DNA of 64,000 bases from Elusimicrobiota bacterium (lineage in GTDB: Bacteria > Elusimicrobiota > Elusimicrobia > UBA1565 > UBA9628): contig JBBTJN010000011.1 of assembly GCA_038059415.1 (NCBI GenBank), positions 7,150-71,149 of the forward strand. The letters are read 5' to 3'. Positions 53,137 through 63,932 of this stretch are shown piece after piece (within the stretch, counting starts at the first letter, position 1; every line of letters starts with the position of its first letter). The notes under the pieces are model-generated. The model did no database searches. It had not been told where the DNA came from and saw only the letters and a program-made list of their open reading frames with translations. Both the position numbers and the translations under genes were made by a program.

Positions 53137-54102
53137 ATGGATCAGAAAAATACGCTGGATTTTCACGGTTCCGGCCTTTGGGCGGTCATCCTCGGCGGCT
53201 CGTCGGGATTCGGTCTAGCGACGGCAAAAAGGCTGGCACGCGCCGGTTTCAACATCCTCATCGGGCACAAGGACAAGGAAGGCACAGTCGAGACGGTGAT
53301 CAAGCCCCATTTCGACGAAATTCGAGCTTCGGGCGTCAACCTCATAACCCACAACATCAATTTGTTCGATGAGGACGCAAGAGGCGAACTCTTCGAAAGC
53401 ATCCAGACCAACTGCGGGCCCGGCAAGGTTCATCTATTCATGCAGTCCATCGCAGCCGGTTCCTGCCGTCTGATGATCGACGACAAGACTCCCGATTTCC
53501 GCGGCAAGGCGATCAAGGGCCTGGCCGAGGCGCTGGGTCTGCCTCCCGAGAAGGTCAAGGCAGCCGTCAACGCCGCGTTCCACGACAAGGGCTGCGACGC
53601 ATTGCACACGCTTGCCGATTCGCGAATTCCGTACCGCGAGGAGCTGCTGACCCAGGAAGATTTCGAGAAAACCATCTTCATGATGGGCTACGATTATTTG
53701 CTGTGGGGCCGCGAGCTGTGCAAGGAAGGCCTCCTCACCAAGGACGCCCGTTTGGTGGCCATGACGTCCGAAGGCAACGAGGTCGCGTGGAAGGGCTATG
53801 CCGCCGTTTCTGCCGCGAAGACCGCGCTGGAAGCCTCATGCCGCGCGATGGCCGTCGAGCTCGCGCCTTACGGCGTGTCCTCGTACATCATGCAGGCCGG
53901 CATCACCGACACGCCCGCCGGCAACGCGATCCCGAACTTCGACCTGATGAAGGCCCAGGCCCGCATCCGCAACCCGTTCCATCGGCTGACGACGCCCGAG
54001 GATATCGCCGAGGCCATCCTCGGCATCTGCGGACCCGCCTTGCGGTGGGTCAACGGTTCCATAATCCGCGCCGACGGCGGGGAAGCGATATCAGGCCTGT
54101 GA
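53137..54102 (+). CDS. Enoyl-[acyl-carrier-protein] reductase-like SDR (FabI/FabL-type Y-x6-K)
   Basis: Rossmann motif VILGGSSGFGLATAKRLA and WKGYAAVSAAKTALEA (Tyr-x6-Lys, as in FabI). An insertion is present around residues 100-170. Confidence 0.65.
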   Translation: MDQKNTLDFHGSGLWAVILGGSSGFGLATAKRLARAGFNILIGHKDKEGTVETVIKPHFDEIRASGVNLITHNINLFDEDARGELFESIQTNCGPGKVHLFMQSIAAGSCRLMIDDKTPDFRGKAIKGLAEALGLPPEKVKAAVNAAFHDKGCDALHTLADSRIPYREELLTQEDFEKTIFMMGYDYLLWGRELCKEGLLTKDARLVAMTSEGNEVAWKGYAAVSAAKTALEASCRAMAVELAPYGVSSYIMQAGITDTPAGNAIPNFDLMKAQARIRNPFHRLTTPEDIAEAILGICGPALRWVNGSIIRADGGEAISGL

Positions 54103-54151
54103 CCGAGCATAGCGGGAGAATGGTCGCTTCGAAAGCCGCAGGAAAGCGACC

Positions 54152-55162
54152 ATGAGCAACCCCTTCAACATCTTGGGAATGGGCTGGGCCCTTCCGAAAA
54201 ACGAAATCGACAACGACTTCCTGCACAAGGAAGTGGGCCTGAAGAAGACACCCGAATGGTGCCTCTCGCGCCTCGGCATCCTGAAGCGCTACTCGGTTCT
54301 ATCAAGGAAATACATCGCCAAGACGCACAACAAGGACCCTCTGCAGGCGATCATCCACGCCCGCGCCAACGGCGAGACGCCGGTATCCTTGGCGGTGCGC
54401 GCGGCGCAACGGGCGATGGCCCATTGCGGCGTAAAGCCCGCGAGGATCGGCATGGTCGTCTGCAACTGCGACCTGCCCTTCGATCTCGTGCCCGGCACCG
54501 CGAACTACATCGCCAAGGCGCTCGGCATCGGCTCCGGGCCGCACATGGACCTCAACACCGCGTGCTCCTCGTTTGCTCGTCATATGCTGTACCTGGGAGA
54601 TCTGAGCGACCGCGCGTTCCCCGAGTTCGTACTGACCGTGCAGACCGCCTGCTACACGACGCGCACCGACTACTCCCCCGAAAACTTCGACGGCTACATC
54701 TGGGGCGACGGCGCGTCAGCCCAGATATGCTCGCTTAAGCATAAGGGCCGCATCAAGGTGGAGCCTCTGGTGTTCGCGACCGACCCCCAGGGCTGCGACG
54801 ACGTGAAGGTGGACGCCACGAGGCACTTCTGGCAGGACGGCGCGAAGATCCGCGAGTTCTCGATAAGACGGACCGTCGAAATGTTCGAGCAGATCGCCGC
54901 GGCGAAGAAACTCTTCGCGGAGGATGTCTACACCGTCACTCACCAAGCGAATTTCGTGATGCAGGAAAGCATCCTCGGTCATCTGAATCTGCCGAAGGAA
55001 CGCCATATCAGCAATGTGCAAGTCCAAGGCAACATCGCCTCGGCCGGCATGCCCTCGGCCATCGCCCAGCATTTGGATAAATTGAAGAAGGGCGACCAAA
55101 TCGTGTACGCCGTCCTCGGCGCAGGTCTCGCGTGGGGCGGCGGCCATATGGAGGTGCAGTAA
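54152..55162 (+). CDS. 3-oxoacyl-ACP synthase III (KAS III / FabH-like)
   Basis: Cys/His/Asn triad contexts NTACSSFARH, VTHQANFVM and QGNIASAGMP. Confidence 0.85.
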   Translation: MSNPFNILGMGWALPKNEIDNDFLHKEVGLKKTPEWCLSRLGILKRYSVLSRKYIAKTHNKDPLQAIIHARANGETPVSLAVRAAQRAMAHCGVKPARIGMVVCNCDLPFDLVPGTANYIAKALGIGSGPHMDLNTACSSFARHMLYLGDLSDRAFPEFVLTVQTACYTTRTDYSPENFDGYIWGDGASAQICSLKHKGRIKVEPLVFATDPQGCDDVKVDATRHFWQDGAKIREFSIRRTVEMFEQIAAAKKLFAEDVYTVTHQANFVMQESILGHLNLPKERHISNVQVQGNIASAGMPSAIAQHLDKLKKGDQIVYAVLGAGLAWGGGHMEVQ

Positions 55163-55887
55163 TGCCCGATATCGCGGTCGTGACCGGCGCCTCGGGCGGC
55201 ATCGGCGCCGCGACGGCGATAATGATCCACGCAAGATCCGAAGGATGCCTCCAGGTCTGCCTACACTGCAATGGGAACAAGGCCGCGGCTCAGGCGCTTT
55301 CCAAGGATATCCCGAATTCGTTTGTCGTGCAGGCCGATCTGTCCGCGGCCGAAGGTCGTAAAGCTCTCTTGGACGCCGTGCTTTCCGCGGGAACCCCTTA
55401 TTGTTTGGTCAACAACGCCGGCATCGACCGTCCCCACGAGCCCGCATTGATGGTGACAGAAGAGGCGTACGACAAGATTATGGACACAAATCTGAGGGCG
55501 CCATTATTTCTTATGCGCGACTTCGCCAAAGAGATGGCGCGCAACGAGGCGGGCGTGATCGTCAACGTCTCGTCAGTGTTGGCGCGCAAAGCCGTCGTCG
55601 GCTCGGCCATCTATCGCGCCTCCAAGGCTGCGGTCGAGGCATTAACCCGGCAGTTCGCCTCGGAATTGGGTCCGAAAGGAGTGCGCGTCGTCGCGATCGC
55701 CCCCGGCTTCATCGAGACGAGCATGACCGCCGCCATCCCCGAGGATCAGCGCGCCGGCATCAAAAAAGACGTCGCTCTCGGCGCGTTCGGCGCGCCCGAA
55801 GCCATCGCCGAGACCGTCTGGCACGCGATCGAGAACCAATATCTGACGGGCGCCGTCATCGCGGTGGATGGAGGCATGGCGTTGTGA
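55162..55887 (+). CDS. 3-oxoacyl-ACP reductase (FabG-like SDR)
   Basis: The ATG at 55162 shares a nt with the upstream TAA (TAATG). Contains VVTGASGGIGAATA, NNAG and SAIYRASKAAVEAL (YxxxK). Confidence 0.85.
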   Translation: MPDIAVVTGASGGIGAATAIMIHARSEGCLQVCLHCNGNKAAAQALSKDIPNSFVVQADLSAAEGRKALLDAVLSAGTPYCLVNNAGIDRPHEPALMVTEEAYDKIMDTNLRAPLFLMRDFAKEMARNEAGVIVNVSSVLARKAVVGSAIYRASKAAVEALTRQFASELGPKGVRVVAIAPGFIETSMTAAIPEDQRAGIKKDVALGAFGAPEAIAETVWHAIENQYLTGAVIAVDGGMAL

Positions 55888-56375
55888 GCGATCTCACCGC
55901 CGCCGAGGTGCTCAAGCTGGTACCCCAACGTCCGCCGATGCGCTTCATCGATCAGATTGTCGAGATCGACAAGGAGCACGTGCTCACCAAGTACACCTGG
56001 AAGGACGCGGACTGCGCGGGGCATTTCCCGGGCAACCCCGTCGTGCCCGGCGTGAAGATGGTGGAGATGGCGGTCCAGACATCGGTCGTCGCCTGGGCGA
56101 TCTATCTCATGAGCGCCAGGGCCCGCGAAGAGCGCTTGTCGAGCATGGTCAACCTCTTCACCCACCTCGACCGGGGCTCCTTCAAGAAGATGGTGCGCCC
56201 CGGCGACACTCTCGCCTGCCGCGCGGCGTTCGGCAAGGACGGATTTTTCCGCGACGGGAAGCTCGTGGCCGAGGCCGAGATCAATTTCCTCGGCGGACCC
56301 AAAGACGGCGAGGCCGCGTTTACCGGCGTCGTGTCCGGACTCTGGATGTCGAAGGACTCGGAGAAACTGAAATGA
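55884..56375 (+). CDS. 3-hydroxyacyl-ACP dehydratase (FabZ/FabA-like hotdog fold)
   Basis: The GTG at 55884 overlaps the FabG-like stop (GTGA). LVPQRPPMRFIDQIVE...HFPGNPVVPGVKMVE is the FabZ-type active-site motif. Confidence 0.8.
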   Translation: MSDLTAAEVLKLVPQRPPMRFIDQIVEIDKEHVLTKYTWKDADCAGHFPGNPVVPGVKMVEMAVQTSVVAWAIYLMSARAREERLSSMVNLFTHLDRGSFKKMVRPGDTLACRAAFGKDGFFRDGKLVAEAEINFLGGPKDGEAAFTGVVSGLWMSKDSEKLK

Positions 56376-57691
56376 GCACCCGCTACCCGAAGCGCGTCGT
56401 CATCACCGGCATCGGCGCCGTGGCCCCGAACGGCCTCGGCATCGCAAACTACCACGCCGCCTTGCTGGCCGGCAGGTCCGGCATCTCCCACCATGAAGAT
56501 CTCGCGACGCTCAACTTCGCCTGCCAGATCGGCGGCAAGCCCCCCGTCGGCCCGGATGAAGCCGAGGCCCTGCTCTCCGGTCCCGACCTAGCCAAGCTCA
56601 ACGAGGCGATGGTGTACGCGACGATGGCCGCCGTCGAGTGCGCGCGGATGTCCGGCGTAAACGTCGACTTAAAGAAGGGCTATAGCGACACTCCCGTGGA
56701 TTGGACGACGGGCGCGATCATCGGCTGCGGCATCGGCGGTATGGACACGATGTGCGAGGACATGGGGCCGGTGCTCGCGGCGGCGAGCGCGCAGGAACCG
56801 GGCATGGGCGTGCGCCCCATGGGAACGGATATCGTCCCCAAGATCATGGAGAGCTCGGTGTCGGTCGCCGTCGGAAAATTCCTGGGCTTGGGCGGGCAAA
56901 CGACGACGAACTCGTCGGCCTGCAACACGGGAACGGAAGCTATTTTCGAGGCCTTCAAACATATTCAGCTCGGCTTCTGCGATTCGATGTATGCCGGCGG
57001 AGCCGAAGGCACCCACCCCGGCACCTGGTCGGGCTTCGACGCGATGCGTGACGTGCTCTGCTCCAGGTTCAACGACCGCCCTGAGAAGGGCTCCCAACCG
57101 ATGGGCGCGGGCGCCTGCGGTTTCGTCCCGTCCGGCGGCGCGGGCGTATTGCGCCTGGAAACGTTGGAGTCGGCGCGCAAACGCGGCGCCAAGATTTTGT
57201 GCGAAGTCGTCGCGACCTACGTTAACTCCGGCGGCCAACGCGACGGCGGCACGATGACCTTCCCCAACCCGGACGGGGTCATGCGCTGCATAAGACAAGT
57301 CATCAAGGATGGAGATTTGGATCCCCGCCGGATTTCTTTAATCAACGGCCATTTGACGTCGACGGGCGCGGATCCGAAGGAAGTGGGCAGCTGGATCAAG
57401 GCTCTGGAACTGCCGCTGGAGAAGTTTCCTCTCATCCAGTCCACGAAATCCATGATCGGGCATGCGCTCGGCGCGGCGGGCGCTTTAGAATGCGTCGCCG
57501 TCGTCGACCAGATCGTCAACAGTTACGTGCATCCCTCGATCAACAGCGAGGACGTTCACCCCCAGATTCCCATCGGCGACAGCATCCCGCATCAGATGGT
57601 GAGAAAAGAGCTCGAGTACGTCATCAAAGCCAGTTTCGGCTTTGGCGACGTAAACGGATGCGTCCTCTTCAAACGCTGGGACGGAAAATAA
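56372..57691 (+). CDS. 3-oxoacyl-ACP synthase I/II type (Cys-His-His)
   Basis: ATG at 56372 (ATGA overlap). Contains RVVITGIGAVAPNG, NSSACNTGTEAI, NGHLTSTGADPKE and STKSMIGHALGAAGALE. Confidence 0.85.
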   Translation: MSTRYPKRVVITGIGAVAPNGLGIANYHAALLAGRSGISHHEDLATLNFACQIGGKPPVGPDEAEALLSGPDLAKLNEAMVYATMAAVECARMSGVNVDLKKGYSDTPVDWTTGAIIGCGIGGMDTMCEDMGPVLAAASAQEPGMGVRPMGTDIVPKIMESSVSVAVGKFLGLGGQTTTNSSACNTGTEAIFEAFKHIQLGFCDSMYAGGAEGTHPGTWSGFDAMRDVLCSRFNDRPEKGSQPMGAGACGFVPSGGAGVLRLETLESARKRGAKILCEVVATYVNSGGQRDGGTMTFPNPDGVMRCIRQVIKDGDLDPRRISLINGHLTSTGADPKEVGSWIKALELPLEKFPLIQSTKSMIGHALGAAGALECVAVVDQIVNSYVHPSINSEDVHPQIPIGDSIPHQMVRKELEYVIKASFGFGDVNGCVLFKRWDGK

Positions 57692-57725
57692 TAGAATCGC
57701 AGTTATCCTCGGAGGAACGAAGAAA

Positions 57726-58628
57726 ATGGCATTCATGCGAAAACAGTCGGTTGTCGAGGCGGTCGACGTGAGTACTCTCACCGCGGAAGAGGCCGAGAAG
57801 CGCATCACGGCGGGCGTCAAGAAATACGCCACCAACGAGGCCAACTACGCCGTGGCCGACGCGAATACACCCTACCTCGGGCACATCGTGGGCATGGGCA
57901 TCGAGTCCTCGAACCTCGCCGACATCACGATGTCCATTGAGCGCCAGTTCCTCACCAAGATGACCACAAAGGTTCCCCTGTCCGAAGGCTCCTCCGAATA
58001 CAAGTTCAAGGCGGGAGAACTCGGCAAGCTTCGCATCCTGGACGGCCAGGACGCTTTAGCCGCCACGCCGGGACTGTCGGTCAAGATGCTCATGGACCTC
58101 GGCCATCTACCGAGGAACGACGCCTATCTCGAGAAGGTCATGTCGTTTGCCTACGTGATGGCGACGGGCGACGGCTGGAAGATGGCCGACGCGCTCAAGA
58201 AGATGGCGGGCAAGGCCGATAAGTTGGCCGGTGCCGAACGAGGAGAAGCCATCGTCAACATGAAGACCCTCGTAGCACAGGCCAAGGACTACGATCTCCT
58301 TCTCGCCGACGCGGCCAAGCTCGCGGCCTCCAAGGCGAAGGCCTACGCCAACGACAAGGGCGGTTTCGACGCGCTGACCAGCGAGTTGAACCTGACCCTC
58401 GACAAGATCAAGGGCGTTTCCTCCGACGGCGATGCCGCGGCGCTCGCCAAGCTGCGCGGCGAGGAAGCCGAAATTCGCACGCGTCTCAAGATGAGCGCGG
58501 CCAAGCTTCGCGTCTCGCAGGAAGTCTCCGAGGCCGCCGGCAAGCGCCGCTCAATCGAGGGCAAGAAGGTCGACGAGGTTCGCGCCGCCCTTCAGGAAGC
58601 CGTTACGCTCGCCGAGAAGCTCTCCTAA
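57726..58628 (+). CDS. Hypothetical 300-aa protein: ACP-like N-terminal segment plus a long Ala/Lys-rich helical tail
   Basis: Residues 54-75, IVGMGIESSNLADITMSIERQF, align position-for-position with the ACP helix II region [20 protein letters not shown]. Ser61 falls at the phosphopantetheine site. Residues ~150-300 are A/K/E/L-rich and predicted helical. Confidence 0.5.
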   Translation: MAFMRKQSVVEAVDVSTLTAEEAEKRITAGVKKYATNEANYAVADANTPYLGHIVGMGIESSNLADITMSIERQFLTKMTTKVPLSEGSSEYKFKAGELGKLRILDGQDALAATPGLSVKMLMDLGHLPRNDAYLEKVMSFAYVMATGDGWKMADALKKMAGKADKLAGAERGEAIVNMKTLVAQAKDYDLLLADAAKLAASKAKAYANDKGGFDALTSELNLTLDKIKGVSSDGDAAALAKLRGEEAEIRTRLKMSAAKLRVSQEVSEAAGKRRSIEGKKVDEVRAALQEAVTLAEKLS

Positions 58629-58630
58629 CG

Positions 58631-60040
58631 ATGCCGCTGGATGCGGAGGAAGTCAAAGCCCTCCGCTTCCAGTGGCGCTTGAGCCGCGCGCTCGTGGTGC
58701 TCGTGTCGCTTGTGGTCACCGCGATCGCGCGGTTTCATTTCCAGTACCGCCTCGACGAGGACATCGACGAGTTGCGCGCGGACATATGGACCAAGCTCGA
58801 CGCGCACGACGGCCCCGTCATCTGGGCCGCCAACCACCTGACGCTCATCGACAGCTTCCTCGTCTATTGGGCGATCTTCCCCGTCAGCCGCCTCCTCGAT
58901 GAGCGGCGCATCCCTTGGTCCACGCCCGAGTACACGAATTACTACAGGCTCGGCGGGCCGGTGCAAAGCGCCCTCATCCGCGGCCTGCTCTATCTGTGCC
59001 GCTGCATCCCGTTCCTTCGGGGCGGGGAAGACGCGGCGTCTGAAATGTGGCGACGGAAGGCCTTCGACAAGTGCGTATGGGTTCTCAAAGAGGGCGGCGC
59101 CGTGTTCGTTTATCCGGAAGCCGGACGCTCGCGCTCGGGCTGGCTCGAGCCTCGGCGCCCGAAGGACTTCCTCGGCAAGTTGGCCATCGAGGTCCCTGCC
59201 TCGAAATTCCTTTGCGTGTATCTGCGTTCCGACCGCCAGATCTCGACGACCGCCTGCCCGCCGCGTGGCGACCGTCTACGCGTCGTGGCCGATCTTATCT
59301 CGGGCGTGCTCCCCGGCGAGACGAATCCCCGCGACATCAGCCAGCGCCTGTTCAACCGGCTCGCCGAGATGCAGCAGGAGTGGTGGAAGGGCTCCGAAAT
59401 GGCGCGCAACTGTGCTGGCAACGACATCGTAGACCTCAAGACGCCGCTGCTGCGCGAGAATTTCTCCGACGACCTGACCGAGGCCGATCAGGAGTGGCTC
59501 GAACGTCACCTGACAAAGAAGGAACTCGCCTATCTCCCCGAACAAGGGCCGACCAATCTCTTCCGCTGCTTCTGGCGCTTCTTCTGCGCGAAGGAAGCCT
59601 GCCACAAGGCGCTGGGCCGCGCCGTGATCGTGGTCCCCAACGGCGCGTTTCACGAGATCGAAATAGACCTTTTCCGCCGCAGGGCGACGCACATCCCGAG
59701 CGGCCTCCAACTCGACATCCGCTTCACCGACGACGACGAGGAGAAGCTCCATTGCGTCGCGGTCCTGCGCGGCGGCTACATCGGCGACGAGGAGACTGCG
59801 GGTGATATCCTCTGGACCGTGGGCGAGGTCCCGGCGGGAACCTCTGCCGGCGCCTTCGTCCGGGACTTAGCGCTCGACATGATCGCCTCGTCCAACGACG
59901 AGATCGCCACCGCCTCGCGCCTGGCCCTCACCGAAAATTCCGGCCTTCCCGGCGTGCTGTGGCGCGGTGCTCTCCAAGACTGGAGCCTGTCTCTGTCCCA
60001 CTCCGGCCGATTCGCGGCCGCCAGCTTCATGATCTCGTGA
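58631..60040 (+). CDS. Fusion protein: PlsC/LPLAT-type acyltransferase plus 4'-phosphopantetheinyl transferase
   Basis: The N-terminal half has AANHLTLID (NHx4D) and VYPEAGRSRSG (motif III). The C-terminal half has GNDIVDL, FCAKEACHKALG and SLSHSGRFAAA, typical of AcpS/Sfp-type PPTases. Confidence 0.7.
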   Translation: MPLDAEEVKALRFQWRLSRALVVLVSLVVTAIARFHFQYRLDEDIDELRADIWTKLDAHDGPVIWAANHLTLIDSFLVYWAIFPVSRLLDERRIPWSTPEYTNYYRLGGPVQSALIRGLLYLCRCIPFLRGGEDAASEMWRRKAFDKCVWVLKEGGAVFVYPEAGRSRSGWLEPRRPKDFLGKLAIEVPASKFLCVYLRSDRQISTTACPPRGDRLRVVADLISGVLPGETNPRDISQRLFNRLAEMQQEWWKGSEMARNCAGNDIVDLKTPLLRENFSDDLTEADQEWLERHLTKKELAYLPEQGPTNLFRCFWRFFCAKEACHKALGRAVIVVPNGAFHEIEIDLFRRRATHIPSGLQLDIRFTDDDEEKLHCVAVLRGGYIGDEETAGDILWTVGEVPAGTSAGAFVRDLALDMIASSNDEIATASRLALTENSGLPGVLWRGALQDWSLSLSHSGRFAAASFMIS

Positions 60041-60050
60041 GGAGAATCGC

Positions 60051-60983
60051 ATGAGCGATGCCATTTGCGCGCTGTTCGCCGGCCAGTCGGTTCAGGAGAC
60101 GGGCATGGGCGTCGAGTTGCTGAGAAACCCCGCCGCCCGCGCCGTCATCGATAGGCTGAAGCCCTCGCTCGGCGCCGATCTCGAGACTTTGCTGACGACG
60201 ATGCCCGATGAGTCCTTGGCGCTCACCTTCAACGCCCAACGCGCGATCCATGCCTCGCATGTCGCGCACTGGTTCGCCTACAAGTCGGCTCATCCCGGCA
60301 TCAAGCTCTCCGGCGCCGTCGGTCACTCGATGGGCGTGGTCGCCGCCCTGGTCGCCGCCGAAGCTCTGCTCCTCGAGGACTCCGGCCGCTTCATTGCCGC
60401 GCGCGCGAAGGCGTTCTCCGACTGCTGCAAGGCCTTCACCGAGCCGATGGGACTGGCCGCCGTCTCGGCGGACGATTTCAACGACGTCGTCCAATCCGCG
60501 GACGAGGTGCCCGGCGTCTGCGTCGCGTTGTGGAACACGCGCGGTCGCGGCACGCTCGGCGGGACGCTCGCCGCGCTCGAGGCCTACGCGGCCAAAGCCC
60601 GGGCCGAGGACTGGCCCGTGAAAATCAAGATTCTCAAGGTTGAGGGACCCTATCACACCGCGGCCTTCGCTCCCGCCAAAGACGCCCTCGCCGCAACGCT
60701 CGCGGCCCTCGAGGTGAAGGCGCCCAAGGTCCCCGTGTTTATGGGAACCTCGGGAAAGGCCGAGAACGACCCGGCGAGGATCAAGGCGCTGCTCGGCGAG
60801 CAGACCGTCGCCTGCGAGCGGCACCTCGACGCGGTGCGAGCGGCGCACGCGGCCGGCTGCCGTACCTTCGTCGAGGCGTCCTTCAAGCCCCAGCCTGTGA
60901 CCTGGCTGCCCGACCAGCTAGAGGCGGGTTCCTACAAGGCCATCGCGCTCACCACGGCGGAAATCACCGCGTCGACGAGATAG
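60051..60983 (+). CDS. Malonyl-CoA:ACP transacylase-like acyltransferase (FabD family)
   Basis: Contains FAGQSVQETGMG, GHSMGVVAAL (GHSxG nucleophile elbow) and YHTAAF. Confidence 0.8.
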   Translation: MSDAICALFAGQSVQETGMGVELLRNPAARAVIDRLKPSLGADLETLLTTMPDESLALTFNAQRAIHASHVAHWFAYKSAHPGIKLSGAVGHSMGVVAALVAAEALLLEDSGRFIAARAKAFSDCCKAFTEPMGLAAVSADDFNDVVQSADEVPGVCVALWNTRGRGTLGGTLAALEAYAAKARAEDWPVKIKILKVEGPYHTAAFAPAKDALAATLAALEVKAPKVPVFMGTSGKAENDPARIKALLGEQTVACERHLDAVRAAHAAGCRTFVEASFKPQPVTWLPDQLEAGSYKAIALTTAEITASTR

Positions 60984-61024: not shown

Positions 61025-62365
61025 ATGCCCACCCGGCGCTACCCCGAGACCGGTGTTTTCTACCGCGCGCTCGATCGAGAGTTCCCCATGATCGTACGCG
61101 GCGAGGGTTGTTGGCTTGTCGACGACAAGGGCCGGCGTTACCTGGACGCCTGCGGCGGAGCCTACGTCGCGAACCTGGGGCACGGCGTTTGCGAGATCGC
61201 TGACGCGGTCGCCGAGCAAGTCCGCAAGGTCGCCTATGTCAATGGGACGGCCTTTACCAACGAGCCCGCCGAGGAACTGGCCGCAGAGTTGCGCACGCTC
61301 AACCCCCAAGGCCTCGACTTCGCCTACTTCCTTTCTTCCGGCTCGGAGGCCGTCGAGGCCGCGCTCAAGCTCGCCCGCCAGCACTGGATCGAGTCGGGAA
61401 AGCCCGGCAAGCACAAGATCATCGCGCGCGCGCCCGGCTATCACGGCAACACCTTGCTGGCGCTCTCCGCGTCAGCACGCGAAGAGTACAAGAAAATGTT
61501 CGCTCACTGGCTCGTGCCCGTGACCATGATTCCCGCTCCATACCCCTACCGTTGCATGCCGGACTCTCCCGCGATGACGGCCTCGGCCCTGGAGGACGCC
61601 ATCCTCAAAGAGGGTCCGGACTCGGTCGCCGCCTTCATCGCCGAGCCGGTCGGCGGCTCCTCGACCGGCGCGTCGGCGCCGCCGAAGGACTACTTCAAGC
61701 GGGTGAGAGATATCTGCGACAAGCATAGCGTGCTGTTTGTCGCAGACGAGGTCTTGTCCGGTTCCGGCCGCACCGGCAAATGGACGGCTCTCGAACACTT
61801 CGACGCGGCCCCGGACATCATGACGCTCGGCAAAGGTTTGTCGGGGGGTTATGTGCCGCTGTCCGCCGTCCTCGCGACAAGAAAAGTGATCGACCCGATC
61901 GCCAATGGATCGGGAACATTCAAACACGCCCAGACTTTTTCCCACTCGCCCGCCATTTGCGCCGCAGGGTTGGCCGCCGTCCGTCATATCAAGAGAAACA
62001 ACCTCGTCGACCGCTGCTCCAAGATGGGCGCCGCGCTTCAGCGCAAAATCTCCGTTTTGCTCGACCTTCCGTCCGTCGGCGACGTCCGCGGCCTCGGTCT
62101 TTTGGCGGGGATAGAGTTCGTCGCCGACAAAAAGACGAAGGCGCCGTTTCCCCGCGCGCTTAAATTCGCCGAGACCTTCGTCGCCTCGGCCCATAACGCC
62201 GGGCTCCTCGTCTGGCCCAACACCGGGCACGCCGACGGCGAGAACGGCGACCTCGTCGTGCTCGCCCCCCCATTCATCGTGACCGAGGCGGAGATCGACG
62301 AGATCGTCGTCCGCTTCAAGACCGCGCTCGAACGCACACTGGAGAAACTTCATGTCCACCGCTAA
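61025..62365 (+). CDS. Class III PLP-dependent aminotransferase
   Basis: Contains SGSEAVEAALKLAR, FIAEPVGGS, FVADEVLSGSGRTGKW and TLGKGLSGGYVPLSAV (PLP Lys). Confidence 0.85.
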   Translation: MPTRRYPETGVFYRALDREFPMIVRGEGCWLVDDKGRRYLDACGGAYVANLGHGVCEIADAVAEQVRKVAYVNGTAFTNEPAEELAAELRTLNPQGLDFAYFLSSGSEAVEAALKLARQHWIESGKPGKHKIIARAPGYHGNTLLALSASAREEYKKMFAHWLVPVTMIPAPYPYRCMPDSPAMTASALEDAILKEGPDSVAAFIAEPVGGSSTGASAPPKDYFKRVRDICDKHSVLFVADEVLSGSGRTGKWTALEHFDAAPDIMTLGKGLSGGYVPLSAVLATRKVIDPIANGSGTFKHAQTFSHSPAICAAGLAAVRHIKRNNLVDRCSKMGAALQRKISVLLDLPSVGDVRGLGLLAGIEFVADKKTKAPFPRALKFAETFVASAHNAGLLVWPNTGHADGENGDLVVLAPPFIVTEAEIDEIVVRFKTALERTLEKLHVHR

Positions 62366-63932
62366 CGCCGCTCCCGCCGCGAAGATCACCTACACCTCCG
62401 TGAACACGGACATGACCGCGTTCCACCGTTCTTTCGACGAGGCCCTGACGCTCGTGCGCGGCAAGGCCGGAAAGGAGCACCCGCTCTGGATCGACGGCAA
62501 GGCCGTGAAGTCGGCTTCCCCCCTTCTCGTCGACCTCTCGCCCATCGATACATCCTTCGTCCTCGGAAAGTTCGCGGCCTCGACCGCCGACCATGTGGAC
62601 CAGGCCGTCAAAGCCGCCCATCGCGAGCAGAAGCTCTGGCGCGCTCTCACGTGGCAGGAGCGCGTGAAGACGATGCGCAAGGCCGCCGTCGCCATACGCG
62701 AACGCAAGTTCGAGATCGCCGCCGTGATGAGCCTGGAAGTGGGCAAGAGCCGCCTGGAGGCCATGGGCGACGCCGAGGAGTCGGCCGACCTCATCGAATA
62801 TTACGCCAAGAACGTCGAGGACAATAACGGCTACATCGTGCCGCTGGGCAAGCTCCTGCCCAACGAAAACACGCGCTCGGTGCTGCGCCCCTTCGGGGTG
62901 TTTGTTTGCATCGCGCCCTTCAACTTCCCCATGGCGCTCTCGACCGGGATGTCCGCAGCGGCCCTGCTCGCCGGCAACGGCGTCGTCTACAAGCCCGCCC
63001 AGGACGCGCCCTGGACCGGCCTCATGCTCTACGAGTGCTACATGGCCGCGGGCATCCCGGCCGGGCTGTTCAATTTCGTGACGGGCCTGGGCTCGGTGAT
63101 CGGAGACGCGCTGTGGAAGAACCCGGGCGTCGACGGCATCGTGTTCACCGGCTCCAAGGAAATCGGAATGCGCATGGTCAAAGAGTTCTCCTCGGCCTAC
63201 CCCAAGCCCGCGCTCATGGAGCTGGGCGGCAAGAACCCGACCTACGTTTCCGAAACCGCCAACCTCGACGACGCCGCCTCGGGCGTCATGAAGTCCGCCT
63301 TCGGTCTGCAGGGACAGAAGTGTTCCGCCTGCTCGCGCGTGTACGTCCACGAGGAGATCTATGACGCCTTCGTGGCCAAGCTCGTCGAAAAGAGCAAGGC
63401 CATCGTCAGCGGCGACCCCACGCAGAAGGACGTATACTTCGGGCCGGTCATCAACGCCAAGTCGGCCAAGACCTTCGATCAAGCCATCGAGTCCGCGAAG
63501 AAGGGCGGCAAGGTTTTGCTCGGCGGAGAGCGCCTCAAGGGAGGGCTCTTCGACAAGGGGCACTTCTGCGCCGCGACCATCGTGGAGCTTCCTCTCGACC
63601 ATGAAATCTTCATGCGAGAACTGTTCGTGCCTATTCTCGCGGTGGGAAAGGTCAAGGACATGGATCAGGCCATCACGCAATCCAACCGTGCGGAGTACGG
63701 CCTGACCGCGGGAATCTTTACAGCCAGTCAAGAAGAGATACAGCGGTATTTCGATGAGATCGAGTCCGGCGTCTGCTACGCCAACCGCCCCTCGGGCGCG
63801 ACCACCGGCGCGTGGCCCGGCGTGCAGTCCTTCTGCGGCTGGAAGGGCTCCGGCTCGACTGGCAAGGGAGGCTGCGGGCCCTATTACGTCACGCAGTTCA
63901 TGCGCGAACAATCGCGCACCATCATGGAATGA
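62352..63932 (+). CDS. Aldehyde dehydrogenase, L-glutamate gamma-semialdehyde (P5C) dehydrogenase-like
   Basis: Contains MELGGKNP, FGLQGQKCSACSR (catalytic Cys) and EYGLTAGIFT. At 526 aa the length matches RocA/PruA-type enzymes. Confidence 0.8.
   Translation: MSTANAAPAAKITYTSVNTDMTAFHRSFDEALTLVRGKAGKEHPLWIDGKAVKSASPLLVDLSPIDTSFVLGKFAASTADHVDQAVKAAHREQKLWRALTWQERVKTMRKAAVAIRERKFEIAAVMSLEVGKSRLEAMGDAEESADLIEYYAKNVEDNNGYIVPLGKLLPNENTRSVLRPFGVFVCIAPFNFPMALSTGMSAAALLAGNGVVYKPAQDAPWTGLMLYECYMAAGIPAGLFNFVTGLGSVIGDALWKNPGVDGIVFTGSKEIGMRMVKEFSSAYPKPALMELGGKNPTYVSETANLDDAASGVMKSAFGLQGQKCSACSRVYVHEEIYDAFVAKLVEKSKAIVSGDPTQKDVYFGPVINAKSAKTFDQAIESAKKGGKVLLGGERLKGGLFDKGHFCAATIVELPLDHEIFMRELFVPILAVGKVKDMDQAITQSNRAEYGLTAGIFTASQEEIQRYFDEIESGVCYANRPSGATTGAWPGVQSFCGWKGSGSTGKGGCGPYYVTQFMREQSRTIME

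Follow-up and report, generated by a model that had tools for sequence, protein, structure and literature searches.

We describe here a fusion gene at positions 58631–60040 of the forward strand of a 64,000-nucleotide stretch of DNA (hereafter the window) from an Elusimicrobiota bacterium (GenBank assembly GCA_038059415.1, contig JBBTJN010000011.1, positions 7,150 to 71,149). Its product joins a lysophospholipid acyltransferase (LPLAT) domain to a phosphopantetheinyl transferase (PPTase) domain, and the gene is the seventh of eight in a fatty acid synthase (FAS) operon, immediately downstream of a gene for a 300-amino-acid (aa) protein that resembles an acyl carrier protein (ACP) and is here termed X300. 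The reading that we favor, with a probability of about 0.6 and on the basis of sequences and structural models, is that the product would be a membrane-anchored bifunctional enzyme of a self-contained alternative type II FAS module, which both primes and unloads X300. The open reading frame (ORF) itself is, as judged by comparison with its relatives, a genuine fusion, produced neither by a frameshift nor by a missed stop codon. The features of the gene are as follows.

58631..60040, forward strand: whole fusion gene, ATG to TGA, 469 aa plus the stop codon
58643..58738, forward strand: long N-terminal helix, residues 5–36, with the hydrophobic stretch LVVLVSLVVTAIA (DSSP on the AlphaFold2 model; sequence)
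58748..59386, forward strand: LPLAT (PlsC/GPAT superfamily) domain, residues ~40–252 (PF01553 match; alignment with stand-alone LPLATs)
58835..58852, forward strand: LPLAT motif I, HX4D, H69–D74 (invariant in 31 orthologs and in the wider subfamily)
59114..59140, forward strand: LPLAT motif III, PEAGRSRSG, P162–G170 (P162, E163, R166, and R168 invariant in 31 orthologs)
59387..59410, forward strand: linker, residues 253–260 (corresponds to the place where, in unfused operons, the end of the LPLAT gene overlaps the start of the PPTase gene)
59411..59770, forward strand: AcpS-like PPTase core, residues 261–380 (PF01648; hhalign; Foldseek)
59417..59434, forward strand: PPTase motif GNDIVD, G263–D268 (G263, D265, and D268 invariant; D265 corresponds to the Mg-binding D8 of Bacillus subtilis AcpS)
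59591..59608, forward strand: PPTase motif KEAxxK, K321–K326 (K321, E322, and K326 invariant)
59807..60031, forward strand: extra C-terminal alpha/beta subdomain, residues 393–467 (strand, helix, four strands; AlphaFold2 models, pLDDT 90–91)
59990..60010, forward strand: SLSHxGR motif in the extra subdomain, invariant (S456, H457, and G459 invariant in the 205-aa PPTase subfamily)

The ORF contains no internal stop codon, begins 2 nt after the stop codon of the carrier-like gene, and ends 10 nt before the start of fabD. The first-pass annotation, made from the letters of the window, had proposed that a PlsC-type acyltransferase is joined here to a PPTase, and the five motifs that it quoted lie in the translation in the order given: AANHLTLID at residues 66–74, VYPEAGRSRSG at 160–170, GNDIVDL at 263–269, FCAKEACHKALG at 318–329, and SLSHSGRFAAA at 454–464. 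Both domains were found by Pfam above the curated gathering cut-offs (PF01553 Acyltransferase at residues 60–188, 31.5 bits versus 23; PF01648 ACPS at residues 263–354, 36.2 bits versus 25), with the catalytic residues of both kept, and the sequence switches from LPLAT to PPTase at about residues 253–260. Among 5.8 billion proteins searched by a word index, 156 relatives were found; of the 120 that were listed, nearly all were 466–471 aa long, shared 55–93% identity with the window protein, and carried both Pfam domains, and the organism names, where given, were Elusimicrobiota. In public databases, the orthologs are annotated either as "4'-phosphopantetheinyl transferase superfamily protein" or as "1-acyl-sn-glycerol-3-phosphate acyltransferase". 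When 31 orthologs with identities down to 55% were aligned, H69, D74, P162, E163, R166, and R168 were invariant in the LPLAT half (G165 nearly so), as were G263, D265, D268, K321, E322, K326, H374, S456, and H457 in the PPTase half, and the junction was conserved without a break (QxEWW..RNCxGNDVVDL). The AlphaFold2 model of the full chain, built with the ortholog alignment, had a pLDDT of 90.2 and a pTM of 0.85.

As the LPLAT and the PPTase are encoded by two overlapping genes in other lineages, one wrong base might in principle join them, and the single ORF could then be an assembly or gene-calling artifact that merges two genes. We give this explanation next to no weight, since more than 150 independent assemblies from several sources yield one protein of 466–471 aa and the linker between the halves is itself conserved. 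Moreover, when 401 species genomes of the phylum were scanned in six frames, the gene was found at full length in 43, of which 42 lacked an internal stop codon. The other ortholog (G327:C3:130364-131761) has a single in-frame TGA, with a second overlapping match covering residues 304–374, a pattern that a local duplication, pseudogene formation, or an assembly error could explain. The first-pass annotation did not recognize the architecture as a standard one, and it is indeed rare and uncharacterized. An exhaustive search of 1.84 billion cluster representatives recovered only 227 relatives, and a full-text literature search retrieved no paper describing an LPLAT–PPTase fusion or an operon of this type. 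Across the 401 genomes, the fusion occurs in every sampled genus of one family (f1) except genus g2, and in one genome of a sister family.

One element of the first-pass annotation did not survive, namely the assignment of the PPTase to the Sfp type. Within the PPTase region, the catalytic motifs are found in the first half, and this half aligns end to end with AcpS: with hhalign, residues 261–377 cover the whole of B. subtilis AcpS (residues 4–103) at a probability of 92–94%, and D8, E58, and K62 of that enzyme correspond to D265, E322, and K326 of the fusion. In Foldseek searches, AcpS structures were the top matches of the C-terminal part, with a TM-score on the target of 0.71–0.76 (0.76 for 1F7L) over about 125 columns and of only 0.42–0.44 on the query, whereas in the structures of Sfp, PcpS, and AASDHPPT only one lobe was aligned, over about 130 columns, with a TM-score on the target of 0.30–0.40. 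The region thus consists of an AcpS-like core followed by a second lobe; the label "Sfp-type" is wrong, and the class is ruled out both by the position of the motifs in the first lobe and by the one-lobe coverage. Nor is the region a single AcpS-type domain of ~120 aa, as it extends over 213 aa. The match to the acpS equivalog model (TIGR00516) was 17.9–20.9 bits, below the cut-off of 59.8, and no Sfp-family model was matched by this half in the NCBIfam scan. In the stand-alone PPTase subfamily, D265, D268, K321, E322, and K326 are invariant down to 25% identity, and when the C-terminal 213 aa were folded alone with these stand-alone relatives, the model reached a pLDDT of 91.3 and a pTM of 0.89.

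The extra subdomain, about 85 aa in size, has no counterpart in AcpS, and no PDB structure covered residues 393–467 in the Foldseek search. The order of its secondary-structure elements and a weak match to the back half of AcpS (AcpS 35–117, E 0.07) raise the idea that the second lobe is a degenerate AcpS repeat; a comparison of residues 257–384 with residues 385–469 by hhalign gave no signal of an internal duplication (E 0.83). In group I AcpS, the active site lies between the protomers of a trimer, and the second lobe of the fusion probably supplies the CoA-site elements that are given by the neighboring protomer in the trimeric enzyme. If the second lobe completes the CoA site in this way, the enzyme could act as a membrane-tethered monomer.

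The LPLAT domain has an alpha/beta fold that ends at about residue 252 in the AlphaFold2 model, and this half aligns end to end with stand-alone LPLATs of 250 aa. The helix at residues 5–36, as modeled, is a probable membrane anchor. Human GPAT1 (8E4Y) was the top PDB match for the N-terminal part in Foldseek, and by sequence the closest PDB entry was PlsC (5KYM, E 0.014) when a profile of the LPLAT half only was used; a profile of the whole protein found AcpS entries alone, with no LPLAT up to E = 1. The wider subfamily to which this half belongs has more than 1400 unfused members, which are named Myxococcota or Deltaproteobacteria where they are named, and it shares E163, R166, and S167 of motif III as invariant residues, together with invariant motifs of its own (PW(S/N)xPE, KC(V/I)P, and YxRG..Q). 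The score of the LPLAT half against the NCBIfam PlsC model (TIGR00530) was 13.9–15.9 bits, with a cut-off of 102.95, and the matches to the models of Aas (30.6 bits versus a cut-off of 1221) and OlsA were also below the cut-offs. Since the superfamily cut-offs are passed and the NCBIfam matches are all sub-threshold, both halves belong to their superfamilies but to no named equivalog.

The fusion gene and X300 lie in a tightly packed operon with the following genes.

53137..60983, forward strand: operon of eight closely spaced genes, all on this strand, with the fusion as the seventh
53137–54102, forward strand: enoyl reductase (ER), FabI/FabV-like
54152–55162, forward strand: ketoacyl-ACP synthase III (KAS III)
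55162–55887, forward strand: FabG, ketoreductase (KR)
55884–56375, forward strand: dehydratase (DH), FabZ/ApeI-like (ApeI/ApeP-like)
56372–57691, forward strand: ketoacyl synthase (KS)
57726–58628, forward strand: X300, 300-aa ACP-like protein (by motif and operon slot)
60051–60983, forward strand: FabD, malonyl-CoA acyltransferase (MAT)

The 607-aa ORF listed at 55868 is an over-extended version of the KS gene. The operon contains the full saturating set of KR, DH, and ER, with no tailoring enzymes, and the same operon, with a 299–300-aa gene upstream of the fusion, was also found around orthologs with 57% and 79% identity. X300 sits in the ACP slot of the operon, which is occupied in unfused operons by an 81-aa ACP. 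Its N-terminal 145 residues are extremely conserved, and the segment GMGIES61-NLADITMSIERQF, which is invariant in 21 sequences, resembles the DSL/helix II region of AcpP (LGADSLDTVELVMALEEEF). X300 thus has a conserved Ser where a segment like helix II begins and lies in the ACP slot of a fab operon, and Ser61 is also kept in a distant homolog on contig L046, described below. This motif and this slot point to an ACP-like protein that would act as the carrier. Helix II of X300 is much less acidic than that of AcpP, so X300 is probably a poor substrate of AcpS. The fusion and X300 share the same 41 genomes of the 401 examined in the phylum and are always adjacent, X300 directly preceding the fusion; the two exceptions, G324 and G381, are explained by contig ends that cut off a gene.

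The 227 relatives include stand-alone PPTases of ~205 aa, which cover residues 259–467 of the fusion, and stand-alone LPLATs of ~250–295 aa, which cover residues 10–254. At three loci, namely L022, L043 (from a 5.8-Mb genome), and L044 (from a "Deltaproteobacteria" metagenome-assembled genome, MAG), the two occur in an unfused operon with the order ER-KASIII-KR-DH-KS-ACP (81–82 aa)-LPLAT (249–251 aa)-PPTase (193–208 aa), followed by a giant multidomain acetyl-CoA carboxylase (ACC), and the LPLAT and PPTase genes overlap by 11–14 nt at all three. The separate LPLAT aligns with residues 3–252 of the fusion (30% identity, E 1e-30), the separate PPTase with residues 263–463 (E 9e-9), and the 81-aa protein is a recognizable ACP (51 bits). 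At the level of sequence and gene order, this demonstrates that the fusion arose by the joining of adjacent, overlapping LPLAT (250 aa) and PPTase (205 aa) genes of one operon. A low-GC contig (L046:1718-16090; ENA ERZ21831094 contig_206) carries ER-KASIII-KR-x-KS, a 288-aa X300 homolog (E 2e-18), a 459-aa fusion, FabD, and a giant ACC, and in its gene content it links the fused and unfused operon types.

Several further observations were made on these relatives. In the fusion on L046, His457 of the SLSH motif is replaced by Asp (SFSDCGRY), and the ACC there is a multidomain protein of 1833 aa. The terminal ACC of the unfused operons (L022:8624-14197, L043:9354-14942, and L044:9321-14903) is a single gene of ~1860 aa, with biotin carboxylase, BCCP, and carboxyltransferase in one chain, an arrangement that is unusual in bacteria outside the actinobacteria. 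A variant operon (L020:5926-8621; ENA ERZ25039551 contig_49511) lacks both the LPLAT and a separate carrier gene, and consists of a 692-aa KS (~250 aa longer than usual) followed by a 206-aa PPTase and FabD, with genes for an MGDG-synthase-like protein and a radical SAM protein adjoining; the carrier may lie within the KS extension. A scan for stand-alone PPTase loci found at least three, although one of the patterns used (FAAKEA..K) was too generic, and at a Latescibacterota locus (L018) the PPTase occurs without FAS context.

The genomes that carry the fusion also keep a canonical carrier and its PPTase. Three PPTase matches were found in the genome from which the window derives, namely canonical AcpS (74 bits), an Sfp-size frame (39 bits), and the fusion, and its canonical AcpP shares 75% identity with the E. 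coli protein. Among 20 tested genomes of the order, canonical AcpS was present in all (64–74 bits in 19 and 49 bits in G092), as was canonical AcpP (57–63 bits), which rules out the notion of a clade without canonical AcpP. In the leanest fusion-bearing genomes (G302, G152, and G190), AcpS and the fusion are the only PPTases, and a single PF00550 carrier accompanies X300. Because canonical AcpP and AcpS are kept in every genome tested, the most likely target of the fused PPTase is the carrier of its own operon. The first-pass proposal that the carrier, PPTase, and acyltransferase work as a dedicated unit gains from all three lines of comparison: the fusion and the product of the gene at 57726 co-occur and adjoin wherever the contig is uncut, the ACP, LPLAT, and PPTase are three adjacent genes in the same order in the homologous operon of Myxococcota, and a separate canonical pair is retained alongside.

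In the same 20 genomes, the divergent KS of the operon (74–101 bits) was the only discrete KS of the fusion-bearing members, and in G301, G302, G152, and G190 it was the sole KS match of any kind, whereas in the fusion-free genus g2 a canonical FabF (192–201 bits) was found instead in three of the four genomes tested. This distribution demonstrates, as far as gene content can, that the module replaced the canonical condensing enzymes in this Elusimicrobiota family (fabH and fabF, and with them fabD), and it marks the operon as the fatty acid synthase of the cell and not a side pathway. With regard to the acyltransferases, the window genome has a canonical PlsC (about 100 bits). However, in all seven genomes of genera g4 and g6 (2.0–2.3 Mb, 90–97% complete), the fusion was the only PF01553 match, and neither PlsY nor PlsX was found. 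On these searches, the fusion is shown to be the only recognizable glycerolipid acyltransferase in these small-genome genera. Elsewhere in the window genome, outside the window (C91:2320-6336), the canonical fab cluster is down to plsX-fabG-acpP-rnc, followed by an acyl-CoA dehydrogenase; canonical fabH, fabD, and fabF, whose usual place is in this cluster, were absent from it and from the rest of the assembly, which is 77% complete.

Bacterial phospholipid synthesis starts with PlsB or PlsX/PlsY and continues with PlsC, and all of these systems use a near-universal AcpP primed by AcpS. Under the favored reading, the PPTase half, through its AcpS-like core with D265, E322, and K326, would move phosphopantetheine from CoA to Ser61 of X300, and the canonical AcpS, kept for AcpP, would presumably not serve X300. 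The LPLAT half (HX4D and PEAGRSRSG), held by the N-terminal helix, would then take the finished acyl chain from holo-X300 and esterify glycerol 3-phosphate (G3P) and/or lysophosphatidic acid (lysoPA) at the membrane. Carrier priming and unloading would be placed on one polypeptide that docks one partner, and the PPTase body may also aid the docking of the carrier.

Several points weigh against this reading. X300 matches no PF00550 or NCBIfam ACP model and has no detectable similarity to the 81-aa ACP of the unfused operon. Canonical PlsC is kept in most of the fusion-bearing genomes, and PlsX or PlsY in some, so the LPLAT half could have a narrower job there; its scores also lie far below the NCBIfam cut-offs for PlsC and PlsB, and its acceptor and donor therefore cannot be read from homology. 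The absence calls for acyltransferases come from MAGs and a filtered search in which other families, such as MBOAT, were not searched for. Finally, canonical AcpP is kept in genomes with no other KS, and the operon enzymes may act on AcpP: either they serve both carriers or acyl groups pass between the carriers.

The division of labor between the two halves is illuminated by a pair of paralogs on contig L045 (577-4233; JGI 3300075518 Ga0643893_0023575), on which the genes run in the order X300 (truncated at the contig end), copy 1 of the fusion, FabD, copy 2, and a CMAS-type phospholipid methyltransferase. In copy 1, which is 47% identical to the window protein, the PPTase motifs are intact, but motif III of the LPLAT has become PEADLSPNGW, with the loss of the invariant Arg166 and Arg168 and the nearly invariant Gly165. 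In copy 2 (P0131), HX4D and PEAKRSRSGW are intact and the damage lies in the PPTase, which has Ala in place of D265, RSA in place of KEA, and Val in place of H374 and lacks ~50 residues of helices, with the SFSHSGRF end kept. A second fusion of this kind, P0133, was also found, and to judge from their residues, the PPTases of both P0131 and P0133 are clearly dead. The complementary decay of the two L045 copies shows that both activities are needed by the cell, and the retention of the two-domain body with one dead site suggests that the partner domain has a role in structure or docking.

Taken further, such a role would mean that the PPTase-like half is mainly a docking or scaffolding element, which holds the carrier or stabilizes the LPLAT, and that the priming of X300 falls to the canonical AcpS or to the genome's third PPTase. 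P0131 and P0133, in which D265 is replaced and the KEA helix and H374 are lost, do keep the domain and its SxSHxGR end, a canonical AcpS is available in every genome tested, and the pTM of 0.85 for the full chain suggests that the two domains form a fixed unit. We nevertheless consider this quite improbable, because the catalytic residues of the PPTase are invariant both in the single-copy fusions and in the far more diverged stand-alone subfamily, the dead-PPTase copy on L045 adjoins a copy with an intact PPTase, as expected if the activity is required, and P0130 keeps the catalytic motifs while His457 of the docking end is replaced. An unlikely, if somewhat more serious, alternative concerns the product: the module may make a specialized lipid, with the LPLAT half acylating another lyso-lipid or polar head group (e.g., a lyso-aminolipid or a glycolipid precursor) and the canonical PlsX/PlsY/PlsC making phosphatidic acid. 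The retention of PlsC (~100 bits) in the window genome and in most relatives, with PlsX or PlsY in some, fits this explanation, as do the distance of the LPLAT half from PlsC and PlsB, its weak matches to the Aas and OlsA models, and the ApeI/ApeP-like character of the DH. It is difficult to reconcile with an operon that holds the only discrete KS of the cell after the loss of canonical fabH/fabD/fabF and that has a complete saturating set without tailoring enzymes, or with the seven genomes of g4 and g6 that contain no other PF01553 protein, PlsY, or PlsX. For these two genera, and perhaps for the whole family, the favored bifunctional reading can be extended, very tentatively, to a third bacterial route to phosphatidic acid without PlsB or PlsX/PlsY/PlsC, in which the fusion LPLAT would acylate G3P, possibly at both positions, from X300 primed by the fused PPTase, which would double as a permanent docking site.

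When the fusion is compared with known enzymes, its PPTase half resembles group I AcpS (B. subtilis, 1F7L/1F80) in the fold of residues 261–380 and in the motifs GxDxxE/D and KEAxxK, and CoA-dependent ACP priming is the chemistry expected by analogy. It differs from AcpS in its length (213 versus about 120 aa), in the extra SLSHxGR subdomain, in its position behind a membrane acyltransferase, in its score below the acpS equivalog cut-off, and in that a true AcpS coexists with the fusion in the same genome. The Sfp-type group II enzymes (Sfp 1QR0/4MRT, PcpS 7BCZ, and human AASDHPPT 2C43) are similar in total size, at about 210–230 aa, and have an xSHSG-like motif; they are also two-lobed monomers, and as the second lobe of the fusion probably completes the CoA site, the logic is possibly the same. 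The order is reversed, however, with the catalytic motifs in the first lobe and SHSG last in the fusion, whereas the catalytic lobe of the Sfp type is C-terminal. With the LPLATs of the PlsC/GPAT type (Thermotoga maritima PlsC 5KYM, human GPAT1 8E4Y, and E. coli PlsB), the other half shares HX4D, an EGxRSRxG-type motif III, and an N-terminal helix before the catalytic domain, but invariant motifs of its own set it apart as a separate subfamily, and it scores far below every NCBIfam equivalog cut-off. The unfused triad of Myxococcota and "Deltaproteobacteria" (L022, L043, and L044) is the closest counterpart, since its operon is homologous, its gene order is the same, and its LPLAT and PPTase each match one half of the fusion from end to end; it differs in having three separate genes, an 81-aa ACP in place of the 300-aa X300, and a giant multidomain ACC that replaces or joins FabD.

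Other enzymes that connect an LPLAT or a PPTase with acyl carriers are organized differently. E. coli Aas is an acyl-ACP synthetase fused to a 2-acyl-GPE acyltransferase, and the myxobacterial PUFA synthase Pfa3 carries an AGPAT domain. In both, as in the fusion, an LPLAT domain is joined to carrier-bound acyl machinery and the product passes straight into phospholipid, but the partner is an adenylating enzyme or a megasynthase and not a PPTase. The alpha subunit of fungal type I FAS has an integrated AcpS-like PPTase (group III) within a 200-kDa megasynthase barrel; there, too, the PPTase is covalently built into the fatty acid system whose carrier it primes, but it is not fused to a membrane acyltransferase. 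To our knowledge, none of the three joins a PPTase to an LPLAT.

Both catalytic folds of the fusion are classical, while the carrier, PPTase, and LPLAT each reach no curated equivalog model. The picture that emerges is of a free-living Elusimicrobiota family with an alternative FAS module that has its own carrier, its own PPTase subfamily, and its own LPLAT subfamily, the last two of which are welded together. If the biochemistry bears this out, the module would provide a new specificity pair of carrier and PPTase, a compact "prime and unload" enzyme with applications in lipid engineering, and a testable case of how gene order, overlap, fusion, and the later splitting of functions shape a core pathway. 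The abundance of unfused LPLAT relatives indicates that the underlying module is widespread and unstudied.

Two minor observations concern neighboring genes and other synthases. Downstream of fabD, at positions 61025–63932 of the window, lie a class III aminotransferase and an aldehyde dehydrogenase (a gabT/gabD-like pair); the pair is not downstream of the operon at loci L014 and L016 and is therefore probably unrelated to the lipid module. The window genome also encodes, outside the window (C47:26061-35507), a Pfa-like (PUFA/secondary-lipid) megasynthase with three KS matches and tandem ACPs in frames of 2027–2279 aa, and the Sfp-size PPTase match (C59:12505-12681, in a 250-aa frame) may serve it. 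In sister families, megasynthase frames of 2760–2970 aa with a KS, several ACPs, and a PPTase match nearby were found (G078:C34, G092:C15, G144:C3, G315:C10, and G072:C12), and no discrete FabF-sized KS was seen in G144 and G078. Shulse & Allen 2011 (PMC3098273) described pfa-like clusters of Elusimicrobia, not the present operon, and the sister-family megasynthase is possibly their "Type R" cluster, acting as the main synthase there.

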